From: Truepera sp.
GTDB taxonomy: Bacteria > Deinococcota > Deinococci > Deinococcales > Trueperaceae
Reading direction: 5' to 3'
Assembly: GCA_965218435.1 (NCBI GenBank)
Contig: CBDCKW010000009.1
Location: forward strand, 3,744,001 to 3,808,000
Length of the DNA stretch: 64,000 bases
Position 1 is the stretch's first letter. Every line of letters begins with the position of its first letter. This document shows, one piece after another, positions 46,201 through 49,200 of the stretch. A program made the position numbers.

Positions 46201-49200
46201 TAGCAGCGTCTACAAGGTGTGAACCCACAAGGCCGGAAGCGCCGGAAATCACGAGGATGGGTTTGGGCGTCGTCATGGGTCAGGGTAGCGCCGCCGGTAC
46301 TGACAGACTGCGCTGTACCTGACTAATACCTACTGCTTACGTGCTCGTTACCGTCCGGCGAGCTGTTTGATGAGGGTCGGCGTCAGGGCACTATGAAGTT
46401 CCAAGCGGCCCGCTTTAAGTGGCCCGTCTAACCGAACGAGCATCCCTTTGCGAAAACGTATCCCCATCTGCGACTCTGCGCCGCAGAGCAGATAGCTTGT
46501 CAGGCCGCTCAAGTACGGTTCATGGCCGACGAGCGCGGCTGCCTTATCGGATTTTTTTAAGCTGACGCGAAGCGCGTCTAACACGCCGGGATAATCGTCG
46601 CCGGTAAGTTCAGCGAGAAGCTCACAGCGTCCGCCCCGAACATGCGGCGTCAGCGGCGCGGCAGTTTCAGCGGCGCGGGTATAAGGTGAGGAAAAAAGCC
46701 GGTCAAAGCGGATACCTAGTGTAGCGAGGGCTTGGGCAAGGGTTTCAGCTTGTTTTTGCCCTTTACGTGACAGGGGCCGCAGGTGGTCATCAGGGTCGTC
46801 GTGATGCGCTTCGCCCGCATGAGCGTGACGGATCAGATAGAGCGTCATGACAGTGATGGTTCCGAAGGCAGCTGTTCTAAAAGCGTGAGCGCGAGGGTGA
46901 GTTTGTCCTCCGCGTGCGGCACCAGACCGGGTTGGTTGAGGGCTTGGGCGAACGTCTCCAGGTCACGCTCAGGAGTTTCGGGTAAGGCTTCAAGCTCGAG
47001 TTCACGAAATCTCACGCTCTGCTCGCCGCGCGTGCTCGTCACTTCGTCAAAGGTCAGTTCGGCCTGCGGTTGTCCGCCCTTAAGGAGCAGATACCGCTGG
47101 CGTTGGGTCGCCAATTCTAAAAGCGGAGCCAGCGTGTTGACGACGCCCAAGGGCTCGAGCTTGGCTGAAATCTCAGGAGGCCAAAAGCCGCCATCAGAAA
47201 AGTTGCGGCAAGGTAGCTCGAGTTCTTCGCGGGTATGCAGGCTTCCGTCTATTACGCCCGCACCCTTATACGTCGCTAGGGTCTGCTCACCGTTTTGGTC
47301 TTTAAGGTGCCTGACCCGCAGCGCGACGCCCGTATGCAAAAGCGTCAGGCTGGGGGTGTCGTAGTAAACATCTCGCTGAGTTCGGCTGCCTTTGGGTTGT
47401 AACGCAACGCCTAGCGCCGCGTACTGCTTGGTCAACTGCCGCACGTCGGGAAAATCTCCGTCAACCTTGAATTTATGTTCGCGTTCAAACGCCATGCTCT
47501 ACTTTAGCCCTATCGGAAGGTGTCGCCGCTTGCATCGGGAACGCTTGACACGCGCACGGCGGCTACCTATACTGAACTATACCTTAATTGCTTAGGTAAA
47601 TAACGGCGAGTGAAACGACGGGGGATGAACGAAGGTGAAGGTCATGAGCGAGCTACCCAAAATGCAGCGAAAAGTTTACGAGCGCCTCTGCGAGGTTAAA
47701 GAGCGCACCGGTAGAGTGCCAGATTTAGCCGTTTTTGCCCGTGAGCTCAACATCCACTACGTCTCGCTGCGGCAACACCTCGAGGCCCTCCACCGCAAAG
47801 GCTTTTTGGTGTTTGAGAGCCGTGGCCGTGGCCAGTCGCCACGTTTGGAACTGCCCCTCAGAGCGACCGGTGTCCCGGTGTTAGGGAGCATCCCCGCCGG
47901 GCCTTTAAGCGAAGCGCTACAAGAGCCCGAGGGCTTTTTGCCGCTCAGCAACGCCCGCGAGCAGTTTGCGCTGCGCGTCAGCGGTAACTCGATGGCCGAC
48001 CTGATTCAAGACGGCGACATCGTGTTGTTCCGTCAAGGGACGCCCGAGCGGAGCGGCGAAATCTGCGCGGTCCGCGTCGAGAGTAGCGAAGTTACGCTCA
48101 AGTATGTGGATAGGCTCGAGCCCAAAACCATCGCCCTGCGGCCACATAACCCGCAGTATCCAACGCTGGCTGTCCCCGCCCGCGACGTTCATATCGAAGG
48201 CGTTTACGTCGGTTTAGTCCGCGGTGAACTTATTGGAGCCCTTTATGAAGACTGTTAGAAACGGCTAGAACGAGTGCCCGCGCCATCCGCCAAGATTTGC
48301 GGGCCTCACCCTGATCACGTCCTCGTACAGCTAAATCCGCTGGTATCCGACTCGAATCTAAGGAGAACGTATGAACCATCCTGTCTCAACCTTTAGGGCG
48401 CTGTCAAGTGCGTTTCAGCACGACGCAGCCGGTCAGACCGTAGATATCTTAGCCGCTGAACTCGCCGCGCAAGTCGGGCGAGAGCGTCACCCACTTCTTA
48501 TCGGTCTCGTTCACCGCGACGCCGTGCGCAAGTTTTACGGCCTCGTCTACCTGCTTGACGGCTACGGCCTGACGCTCCGGCAGCGGCACCGCGAGCAAGG
48601 GGACGGTGTGTTCGTTTACGCTGAGCGCAAAGGCGACGCGTACGCTGAGTTTGATGGCGCAGTTGTTTTGGAGCGTGTCACCGAGCCCGCCACCGAAGCG
48701 CCTTACGTGTTCCCGCAGGCAGCCTGAGATAATTACAGGCTGATTCTATCGGCCTCCGTCTGCAGCTCAGACTGAGTTTTTTTGACTGACTTTTGCTGCT
48801 CTCTCGCTCTGTCGGCTCCAAATACGTCGCGTGAGATTCTTCGATAAACGCTGAAAGCTGCTCGTAACGTGCGCAAATTTCGGGGTACTTGATGAGAAGA
48901 CTTTTTGTACGCACGAGCTTTTGGGTAAGTTCCTCGAGCTCACGGCTCTTTTCAGGGCGAGGTTCGTATGATTCAAGCGAAACAGGTAAAACCATAACGC
49001 CAAGTCGCTGGAGAACTCACGAAGTGCCTGCGCTTTTTCTTCCCACACCTATTTTGTCAGTGAACGTCTGAACTTGCGCTTCTCGAGCCCGTTTTGCGTA
49101 ATGAATGACGCAACGAAACCGATGACTGTACCCATCAACGATGAAATAACCGGGTTACCAAAAGCTGAGAGTAGCCACTGAACCACGGTTTAGTTTAGAC

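Follow-up and report, generated by a model that had tools for sequence, protein, structure and literature searches.

We propose that the 19-bp palindrome TACCTTA-N5-TAAGGTA is, judging from sequence, very probably the operator of the Trueperaceae LexA, which would head an SOS regulon of about 15 operons. Because this palindrome lies on the lexA promoter and marks about 15 repair operons, the Trueperaceae, the sister group of Deinococcus, probably run a classical LexA-type damage response. The lexA locus lies in a 64,000-nt stretch of a Truepera sp. genome (contig CBDCKW010000009.1, positions 3,744,001 to 3,808,000; hereafter the window). The initial annotation of this DNA had already read the box as a LexA operator with an SOS regulon, and our analysis supports that reading through the presence of the box at nearly all lexA loci compared, the split of the recA genes by promoter type, and the covariation of box type with the LexA recognition helix.

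The lexA product carries a C-terminal Peptidase_S24 domain (PF00717, 1.4e-23) and an N-terminal winged-helix domain (LexA_DNA_bind, PF01726; 24.9 bits vs a cut-off of 23.7), and aligns over its full length to the solved LexA structures 3k2z, 7b5g and 1jhh. The A88-G89 cleavage site, S119 (in GNSM) and K156 (in TLKY) are in line with the corresponding residues of E. coli LexA. The protein misses the NCBI equivalog cut-off TIGR00498 (96.1 vs 110.95 bits); this marks it as a divergent member and weakens automatic orthology, not the domain-level assignment. Of the two candidate starts (Table 1), the ATG is the likelier, since the N-termini of orthologues align from there.

Table 1. Features at the lexA locus, in window coordinates
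Feature	Position	Strand	Remarks
Divergent CYTH-domain gene	46845..47495	-	Pfam CYTH 1.3e-17
lexA promoter	47545..47573	+	-35 TTGACA 47545-47550, 17-nt spacer, -10 TATACT 47568-47573
Predicted LexA operator	47580..47598	.	TACCTTAATTGCTTAGGTA; 19 bp, matrix score 23.8 bits
lexA	47635..48258	+	longest ORF from GTG 47635, 207 aa; alternative ATG 47644, 204 aa
orf118, 118-aa gene without assigned function	48371..48727	+	after lexA
Rad52/Erf-like (DdrA-like) ssDNA-annealing protein gene	49234..49986	+	Pfam Rad52_Rad22 2.1e-6

A consensus scan of positions 47400-48500 returned the lexA promoter, with 11 of 12 consensus matches, as the sole promoter-like site. The 17-bp core of the predicted operator, ACCTTAATTGCTTAGGT (47581-47597), differs from ACCTTA-N5-TAAGGT by one mismatch and is the one core site in the window, where 0.03 sites are expected by chance. 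It lies 8 nt 3' of the -10 hexamer and, for the two candidate starts, 37-46 nt 5' of lexA, so that in the predicted transcript the operator would cover approximately positions +1 to +19.

The CYTH gene adjoins lexA solely within the same genus; with 85 nt between its start and the upstream box, co-regulation is possible. On the other side, orf118 is kept 3' of lexA in 10 of 30 loci, and in three other genera (G036, G020, G032) it shares a separate box with the Rad52-like gene. We found no family match for orf118 in Pfam, NCBIfam or PHROGs and no usable match in the protein Atlas. The DdrA-like protein matches the Erf-like PHROG (2.8e-21) and is 37-39% identical to the products of Deinococcus genes of about 202-208 aa with an RDRM-like site ahead of them; a search of the PDB gave no sequence match. 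It is uncertain whether the lexA box controls the DdrA-like gene in this genome, because the 506 nt that follow orf118 include a terminator-like hairpin (48758-48772) as well as an ORF on the minus strand.

Rescanning the genome recovered the six exact and 14 one-mismatch sites of the initial annotation at the same coordinates, with 3 of the 20 inside genes, in agreement with its count of 17 intergenic sites. The six exact sites stand against an average of 0.2 among 90 control palindromes whose half-sites were permuted (the highest of these had 2), and spacers of 0-11 other than 5 yielded 0-1 exact sites each. The initial annotation had also counted the one-mismatch class as evidence, which does not hold for the class taken whole (14 sites vs 3-16 with other spacers); just the nine sites with A/T-rich spacers are convincing. 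The five with G/C-rich spacers (C9:284833, 480910, 1123782, 2417824 and 2682748, in contig coordinates) were treated as chance, because they score at most 15 bits or are absent from the matrix scan and lie in or beside unrelated genes.

The matrix scan itself separated 17 sites of at least 21.8 bits, 12 of them outside the training set, from a next score of 17.2 bits, and all 17 were intergenic by the gene calls of a crude ORF scorer. The reversed matrix gave no site of at least 21 bits, and 20 column-permuted matrices gave a mean of 0.25 and a maximum of 2. The extended motif, T-ACCTTA-AwwwT-TAAGGT-A, has flank and spacer positions that are conserved though they were unused in site selection. 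Boxes abut or overlap -10-like hexamers, and many genes begin within 10 nt 3' of the box. Whole-genome pattern counts in five relatives, at no more than one mismatch against a reversed control, exceeded the control clearly in G003 (9 vs 1), G011 (3 vs 0) and G032 (14 vs 0), with a small excess in G036 (10 vs 5) and G020 (11 vs 6).

As to the genes behind the boxes, Pfam bears out the identities originally given for recA, uvrA, DUF3072-uvrB (two boxes), the photolyase, AAA_24 and DUF6157, and likewise those of the further boxed genes: nSTAND5, crp, an ABC transporter and a 157-aa gene without assigned function, whose product had no usable match in a protein Atlas look-up. Another box stands before a small ORF, behind which come Glyoxalase_7 and dnaE; this dnaE, the sole one in the genome and only a candidate member of the regulon, lies 160 nt past the two small genes behind the box. 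We add two sites, one before a SRAP gene and one before a radical-SAM gene. For uvrA the box was confirmed, but the gene behind it is a second paralogue that shares 54% identity with the canonical uvrA. A common predicted operator is found before lexA, recA-B, uvrA-B, uvrB, the photolyase gene and the SRAP gene, and this regulon content is typical of SOS. Across genera, a core of lexA, recA-B, orf118 and the DdrA-like gene is boxed, and in G036 an IMS/Y-family polymerase also carries the box.

Within the family, the box lies at most 100 bp upstream of lexA at 30 of 30 loci (28 with no more than one mismatch), these being the best-scoring 30 among 95 family genomes in which lexA was matched (60-100% protein identity), and before lexA in 34 of 36 named Trueperaceae records; these and the following family counts come from related genomes, not independent samples, with 30 loci per gene at most. 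Together with the helix/box covariation described below, these counts point in silico to a LexA self-operator. The statement that recA-B is boxed and the cinA-recA-A operon is not extends to the family: the box was present at 15 of 15 cinA-less recA loci, and at 0 of 15 cinA-linked ones when no more than one mismatch was allowed. The two recA copies have coding regions 99-100% identical, with the box in the promoter of one and the other placed in the cinA operon. Of 101 genomes, 28 gave no match to recA, which we do not read as gene loss; in G036, the recA beside the box is broken by a run of N. Membership of uvrA and uvrB in the regulon is patchy over genera, with boxes at 12 of 30 uvrB loci and at nine of 14 orthologues of the second uvrA (five without), compared with none of 16 canonical uvrA loci.

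All 33 proteins with the predicted recognition helix HY[VM]SL[KR]QH[LI] have an ACCTTA-N5-TAAGGT box, including three distant second paralogues that are 43-47% identical to the query LexA. Proteins with the helix xY(P/S)TLRxHL carry ACCCT-N9-AGGGT instead in 14 of 16 cases, and the Thermaceae homologues carry ACCTGT-N6-ACAGGT in eight of eight. This covariation is the strongest support for LexA as the binder of the predicted operator. The box of the second clade was unenriched relative to its control (G000 3 vs 2, G023 0 vs 1, G003 2 vs 1, G038 3 vs 3, G008 4 vs 0), and we rejected a genome-wide regulon of the second LexA clade on the counts in these five genomes.

We weighed three other explanations of the box. 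It might be the site of a Crp/Fnr-family regulator (G000 C9:2989010-2989675) controlling itself, lexA and the repair genes. The initial annotation had overlooked this regulator, whose gene adjoins lexA in divergent orientation in most genera. At 19 of 30 crp loci the two genes share a divergent intergenic region, crp has its own box where it lies apart from lexA in G000, G023, G035 and G038, and second crp copies are boxed in G003 and G036; autoregulation alone therefore does not single out LexA. However, in the intergenic regions common to both genes the box is close to the lexA start (12-30 bp) and far from crp (203-331 bp), and away from lexA only four of 11 crp loci are boxed vs all 30 lexA loci. 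The box type also tracks the LexA helix, even in distant LexA paralogues and in Thermaceae. Moreover, Crp/Fnr sites are generally even-length palindromes such as TGTGA-N6-TCACA, and the box is odd-length. The Crp-family reading fits the data less well than LexA, and we regard it as quite improbable. Still less credit is due to the view that the palindrome is a chance pattern, or else an element tied to the promoter or leader for which no dedicated repressor exists. The palindrome does overlap A/T-rich -10 regions, and the one-mismatch class as a whole is unenriched, but this reading is strongly disfavoured by the 17 high-scoring sites vs 0-2 in control matrices, by the conservation of unselected flank and spacer positions, and by the contrast of fully boxed lexA and recA-B loci with unboxed canonical uvrA and cinA-recA loci; we consider it extremely improbable.

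It is also improbable that another repressor acts on the box and lexA, for instance an XRE-type protein cleaved by a separate protease in the manner of DdrO/IrrE. According to PMC5552922, the RDRM of Deinococcus, too, is a palindrome of 17 bp that is A/T-rich at its centre and sits on the promoters of repair genes, and G000 has six M78-peptidase (PF06114) matches. On the other hand, a DdrO-like Deinococcus query (129 aa) gave no full-length match among 41 family genomes; its matches, in 21 of the 41, were N-terminal, confined to the HTH and reaching about residue 104 (best E-value 1.9e-9). No IrrE orthologue was found: G023, of the same genus, keeps its boxes with no PF06114 match, G003 has one marginal match, and the similarity of the M78 proteins of G000 to the Deinococcus IrrE candidate is confined to one domain (33% over 106 aa). 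Using a degenerate RDRM-like pattern, we saw no enrichment over the reversed control in G000 (13 vs 11), G023 (2 vs 5) or G003 (6 vs 6), compared with 15 vs 8 and 16 vs 2 in the Deinococcus genomes G129 and G145; as a positive control, the RDRM-like sites of G129 precede cinA(-recA), ssb, uvrA and gyrA. The contrast with Deinococcus drawn in the initial annotation thus holds in the tests run, and another repressor would leave the LexA helix/box covariation unexplained.

One part of that contrast was overstated, namely that LexA controls no genes in Deinococcus: according to passages of PMC6300522, LexA of D. deserti controls lexA-imuY-dnaE2. The same passages describe RecA-dependent cleavage of Deinococcus LexA, place recA outside its control and, beyond the D. 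deserti TLS operon, call its targets "currently unknown". In the parts of PMC1978522, PMC5552922 and PMC6300522 that bear on the RDR regulator, the XRE repressor DdrO is cleaved by a separate M78 protease, IrrE; the Trueperaceae LexA is instead predicted to cleave itself. The Deinococcus and Trueperaceae systems are alike in the kinds of effector, RDRM-like sites in Deinococcus G129 standing before cinA(-recA), ssb, uvrA and gyrA and others in Deinococcus before the DdrA-like gene, and in a 17-bp palindromic operator with an A/T-rich centre on promoters. Deinococcus LexA1 and LexA2, from the same phylum, are S24-type homologues whose identity to the Truepera LexA is only 27-38%; the promoters of their own genes also bear palindromes, which differ from the Truepera box and fall into the classes CTATC-N12-GATAG and TCTTGA-N6-TCAAGA.

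The likeness to E. coli LexA extends to the winged helix-turn-helix and S24 autopeptidase, with the Ala-Gly site and the Ser119/Lys156 dyad at matching positions, and, as predicted for Truepera, to a palindromic operator on the lexA and recA promoters, with uvrA and uvrB among the targets. However, the E. coli SOS box is CTGT-N8-ACAG vs an odd-length 19-bp box in Truepera, and the predicted Truepera recognition helix, HYVSL(K/R)Q, differs from the aligned E. coli helix. Unlike in E. coli, the box goes with additional copies of recA and uvrA, cinA-recA and the canonical uvrA being without one, and no umuDC was seen in Truepera. The closest homologues outside Trueperaceae are the LexA-like genes of Thermaceae (7 of 25 genomes, 42-45% identity), which have the outer arms TACCT...AGGTA in common and a palindrome directly 3' of their own promoter; their box has a core of CTGT/ACAG and exceeds that of Truepera by one base. 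In four box-bearing Thermaceae genomes ACCTGT-N6-ACAGGT was rarer than its reversed control and occurred essentially only at the lexA-like gene, exclusively so for sites with an A/T-rich centre. We therefore rejected a Thermus regulon; the box looks like a local switch. The LexA box of Magnetococcus MC-1 is CCT-N10-AGG, with similar CCT/AGG arms; its spacing differs (CCT-N9-AGG in Truepera) and the lineage is unrelated, so this likeness serves only as a lead.

Returning to the LexA operator, we infer the following course of regulation. A LexA dimer would sit on the palindrome, either on the -10 hexamer and the transcription start or directly 3' of them, and would repress its own gene plus about 15 operons in this genome. 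The proposed targets are recA-B, the second uvrA, DUF3072-uvrB, the photolyase, SRAP and radical-SAM repair-type genes, the AAA_24/Sak4-like gene, DUF6157-DUF72-ada, the Crp-family regulator and several unassigned genes. Upon DNA damage, RecA bound to single-stranded DNA would prompt LexA to cleave itself at Ala88-Gly89 via the Ser119/Lys156 dyad, and cleavage would de-repress, and hence induce, the boxed genes.

We found no description of a Trueperaceae LexA operator in the literature on LexA and SOS in Truepera, Deinococcus and Thermus, subscription journals, RegPrecise and CollecTF aside. Taken jointly, we somewhat favour the view that Trueperaceae direct their damage response by means of a full LexA regulon, whose operator is undescribed in the literature searched, with the same effectors (recA, uvrA, DdrA-like) that stand under IrrE/DdrO in Deinococcus, which would amount to a wholesale swap of the master regulator between sister families, and that two recA genes, kept 99-100% identical by gene conversion behind different promoters, place one protein under two regulatory regimes.

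The phylum thereby gains a defined and testable predicted LexA operator and regulon. The three related helix/operator pairs (LexA1, LexA2 and the Thermaceae type) lend themselves to the study of shifts in LexA specificity, and orf118, the 157-aa protein, DUF6157 and the AAA_24 protein are pointed to as candidate damage-response genes. Truepera radiovictrix, a member of the Trueperaceae, is highly radiation-resistant. Our data indicate that this sister family of Deinococcus has no IrrE/DdrO in the genomes tested and keeps its repair genes behind LexA, which bears on when and why IrrE/DdrO arose and on whether it is necessary for extreme radiation resistance.

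The lexA product of the window can be aligned end to end with solved LexA structures and retains the Ala-Gly cleavage site (A88-G89) as well as the catalytic residues Ser119 (GNSM) and Lys156 (TLKY). Since it reaches 96.1 bits with the NCBI LexA equivalog model, under the cut-off of 110.95, it is a divergent LexA. A product of 204 aa is likelier than one of 207 aa, because orthologue N-termini correspond to the ATG at 47644. The 19-bp predicted operator TACCTTAATTGCTTAGGTA, a copy of the palindrome ACCTTA-N5-TAAGGT (the box) with its flanking bases, comes seven bases after the lexA promoter and would cover roughly positions +1 to +19 of the transcript predicted from it.

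Scanning the whole genome under study (G000; 4.8 Mb, 9 contigs) revealed six exact and 14 one-mismatch matches to the box, which reproduced the site coordinates of the initial annotation. Ninety palindromes of permuted half-sites gave a mean of 0.2 exact sites (next best 2), and spacer lengths other than 5 gave 0-1. The one-mismatch class as a whole was not enriched in G000 (14 sites vs 3-16 at other spacers), and five of these 14 sites have a G/C-rich spacer and lie in or beside unrelated genes. A symmetrised motif built from 63 unique family sites upstream of lexA, recA, uvrA and uvrB reaches 19 bp (T-ACCTTA-AwwwT-TAAGGT-A), and positions outside the selection are conserved, with the flanking T/A in 72% of the 63 sites and an A or T centre in 97%. 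With this matrix, 17 sites in G000 score at least 21.8 bits (next best 17.2 bits); 12 of them lie outside the training set, and all 17 are intergenic by the gene calls of a crude ORF scorer. In G000 the reversed matrix gave no site of at least 21 bits, and 20 column-permuted palindromic matrices gave a mean of 0.25 and a maximum of 2. The motif first noticed in this genome is therefore confirmed both by exact sites (six vs a mean of 0.2) and by matrix sites (17 vs 0-2).

Among 100 family genomes from 36 genera, 95 have a lexA match. The box lies at most 100 bp upstream of lexA in all of the 30 best-scoring loci, which were those fetched (60-100% identity; 16 boxes exact, 28 with at most one mismatch), and in 34 of 36 testable named records of the same collection, a dependent tally that overlaps the 30 loci. 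Of 30 recA loci, 15 follow cinA, and none of these has a box at one mismatch or fewer; three of them, all of a single genus, carry a two-mismatch site near -230. In the other 15, which lack an upstream cinA, a box is always present, between -55 and -134, with at most one mismatch in 11. Thus, the proposal that the box precedes recA-B and not the cinA-recA operon holds at 15/15 vs 0/15 loci (at most one mismatch for the cinA set). Counts of sites with at most one mismatch against the reversed control were 9 vs 1 (G003), 3 vs 0 (G011), 14 vs 0 (G032), 10 vs 5 (G036) and 11 vs 6 (G020). Near the sites in these five genomes lie recA-B, lexA, the AAA_24 gene, the 157-aa gene, DUF6157, the ABC exporter, crp copies, tandem glyoxalases, an IMS/Y-family polymerase, and orf118 (the 118-aa gene downstream of lexA) with the Rad52-like gene. 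The unpublished genome G033 contributes a canonical-uvrA locus (L129), a crp locus (L186) and to the family tallies; the conclusions are independent of it.

The uvr genes required correction. A box does precede one uvrA as proposed, but the boxed gene, which scores above the UvrA equivalog cut-off, is a second paralogue, 54% identical to the canonical copy (full-length UvrA genes C9:156110-158980 and C9:3092923-3095751). The box occurs at 9/14 orthologues of the second uvrA vs 0/16 canonical loci, and such orthologues (at least 68% identity) were found in only 13 of 40 other family genomes searched. As uvrB is boxed at only 12/30 loci (for one unboxed locus the upstream sequence is short), both genes, boxed in G000, are patchy members in the family.

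The recA copies of G000 (C9:1610300-1611310 and C9:2069678-2070721) lie outside the window. The cinA-operon and boxed copies share 98.9-100% nucleotide identity across roughly 950-1014 bp of the coding region (L323-L332), and this near-identity holds within each of six genomes from five genera. Between genomes recA is at most 80% identical, and the flanks of the two copies show no match; such a pattern is indicative of sustained gene conversion, which would hold one RecA protein under two promoters. The gene immediately upstream of boxed recA-B encodes a phage-type integrase (L007:1932-3122; G000 C9:2067932-2069125), and a 73-aa ORF follows recA, also in G003. Loss of recA, for which 28 of 101 family genomes gave no match, was rejected: in G036 a run of N interrupts recA by its box (L228, G036:C1:2279322-2282338), so the missing matches are a data artefact.

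The box at the lexA promoter is, taken alone, ambiguous as to its binder. A Crp/Fnr-family regulator could be considered, as its gene lies next to lexA in divergent orientation in 19/30 crp loci (L185, L189-L199, L201-L207) and has its own box away from lexA in G000, G023, G035 and G038. However, the box in the shared intergenic regions lies 12-30 bp from lexA and 203-331 bp from crp, and only 4/11 crp loci apart from lexA carry one. More importantly, box type tracks the LexA stretch aligned with the E. coli LexA recognition helix. The helix HY[VM]SL[KR]QH[LI] accompanies ACCTTA-type boxes in 33/33 cases (30 orthologues and three distant second paralogues, 43-47% identical to the query); xY(P/S)TLRxHL, in 16 second paralogues, accompanies ACCCT-N9-AGGGT just past the -10 in 14; eight Thermaceae homologues with RPQTLRQHL and variants have ACCTGT-N6-ACAGGT; and Deinococcus homologues have still other palindromes. 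Box position and this covariation make LexA a far better candidate binder than Crp. The shared regions and the separate crp boxes suggest that LexA and the Crp-family protein are linked in function.

Second lexA paralogues occur in many family genomes (L249-L268, L164) and are absent from G000. Members of this second clade differ in their predicted recognition helix and have their own palindrome, TTACCCTNA-N5-TNAGGGTAA, directly past a TTGACA/TATCCT promoter; the palindrome showed no genome-wide enrichment, so that the regulon may be tiny. Of 25 Thermaceae genomes, seven encode a LexA homologue of 42-45% identity, in some cases twice (L140-L146, L165, L166, L277-L279). Its gene is preceded by TACCTGTTATATAACAGGTA, a box essentially confined to it, and resembles a local switch that may be mobile. 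Deinococcus LexA homologues (L147-L163), whose targets are called unknown in the literature, have conserved palindromes past their own promoters, and these, with CTATC-N12-GATAG as one class and TCTTGA-N6-TCAAGA as another, are candidate operators.

Features of the lexA region (window positions) and predicted regulon members in G000 (contig positions)
Feature	Position	Strand	Remarks
Promoter TTGACA-17-TATACT	47545-47573		11/12 matches; sole promoter-like site of region
Predicted operator TACCTTAATTGCTTAGGTA	47580-47598		Seven bases past promoter, upstream of lexA
lexA ORF, 207 aa	47635-48258	+	Box upstream; Peptidase_S24 1.4e-23; LexA DNA-binding domain 24.9 bits (cut-off 23.7)
ORF, ~93-105 aa	within 48728-49233	-	Between orf118 and Rad52-like gene
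Terminator-like hairpin and T run	48758-48772		In orf118/Rad52-like gap
Rad52/Erf-like gene	49234-49986		Downstream of lexA
recA-B			Box upstream
Second uvrA			Box upstream
DUF3072-uvrB			Two boxes; glyoxalase and AraC gene divergent
Photolyase			Box upstream
AAA_24/Sak4-like ATPase			Box upstream
DUF6157-DUF72-ada/ogt			Box upstream
Small ORF, then Glyoxalase_7			Box upstream; upstream of sole dnaE
Crp/Fnr-family regulator	C9:2989010-2989675		Own box
ABC exporter			Box upstream
Uncharacterised 157-aa gene			Box upstream
Small ORF before nSTAND5 NTPase	C5		Box upstream
Duplicated site	C5:23559 and C5:265637		350 bp before DUF6463 gene
SRAP (SOS-response-associated peptidase) gene	C5		Box 8 nt before; not in initial annotation
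Radical-SAM gene, weak match 'DNA repair photolyase'			Box between purB and this gene; not in initial annotation

Boxes of the G000 members adjoin or overlap -10-like hexamers, and several genes begin at most 10 nt past the box, which fits leaderless transcripts. The identical boxes of the duplicated site are part of a duplication several kb long, some 350 bp ahead of the first called gene, and an uncalled short ORF may begin about 26 nt past them. Ahead of the sole Y-family polymerase gene of G000 (C9:953790-955099) lie a fragment similar to the SRAP C-terminus and a degenerate box-like site (13.3 bits); the locus may represent a decayed SOS operon.

The Rad52/Erf-like gene follows lexA-orf118 in 10/30 Trueperaceae loci, or, in three other genera, stands behind a box of its own; its Deinococcus homologues are 37-39% identical, with an RDRM-like site upstream. 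The gap to orf118 is 506 nt in G000 (48728-49233), and the genes abut in relatives. Because the hairpin and the minus-strand ORF separate the two genes, control of the Rad52-like gene by the lexA box is uncertain in G000.

PMC6300522 and PMC1978522 place Deinococcus repair genes under IrrE/DdrO via the RDRM, put recA outside the control of LexA1 and LexA2, and give the D. deserti lexA-imuY-dnaE2 operon as the only known LexA target. The contrast first drawn with Deinococcus stands for repair genes, but not for the statement that LexA controls none, given the D. deserti operon (PMC6300522). A DdrO-like query (129 aa, nearly identical in two Deinococcus genomes, RDRM-like site upstream) had no full-length match in 41 family genomes, and matches to its N-terminal part only in 21. 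PF06114 (M78) had no match in the same-genus genome G023, and none of the six PF06114 genes of G000 resembles the Deinococcus IrrE candidate past one domain; contig C5 has four of these six M78 matches. An RDRM-like pattern was not enriched in G000, G023 or G003; it was enriched in two Deinococcus genomes and precedes cinA, ssb, uvrA and gyrA in G129 (Deinococcus). These three results agree with the proposed absence of IrrE/DdrO from Truepera.

No description of the Trueperaceae box was found in the literature searched, which did not extend to RegPrecise, CollecTF or subscription journals. Taken together, conservation at lexA and recA-B and covariation with the LexA helix support, with the corrections made here, the reading of the box as a LexA operator with an SOS regulon. 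Box and regulon would make up a form of the LexA/SOS switch specific to this lineage, with predicted binding, cleavage and induction. Judged from these comparisons, including the contexts of the Rad52/Erf-like gene, Trueperaceae and Deinococcus appear to place the same effectors under different master regulators.
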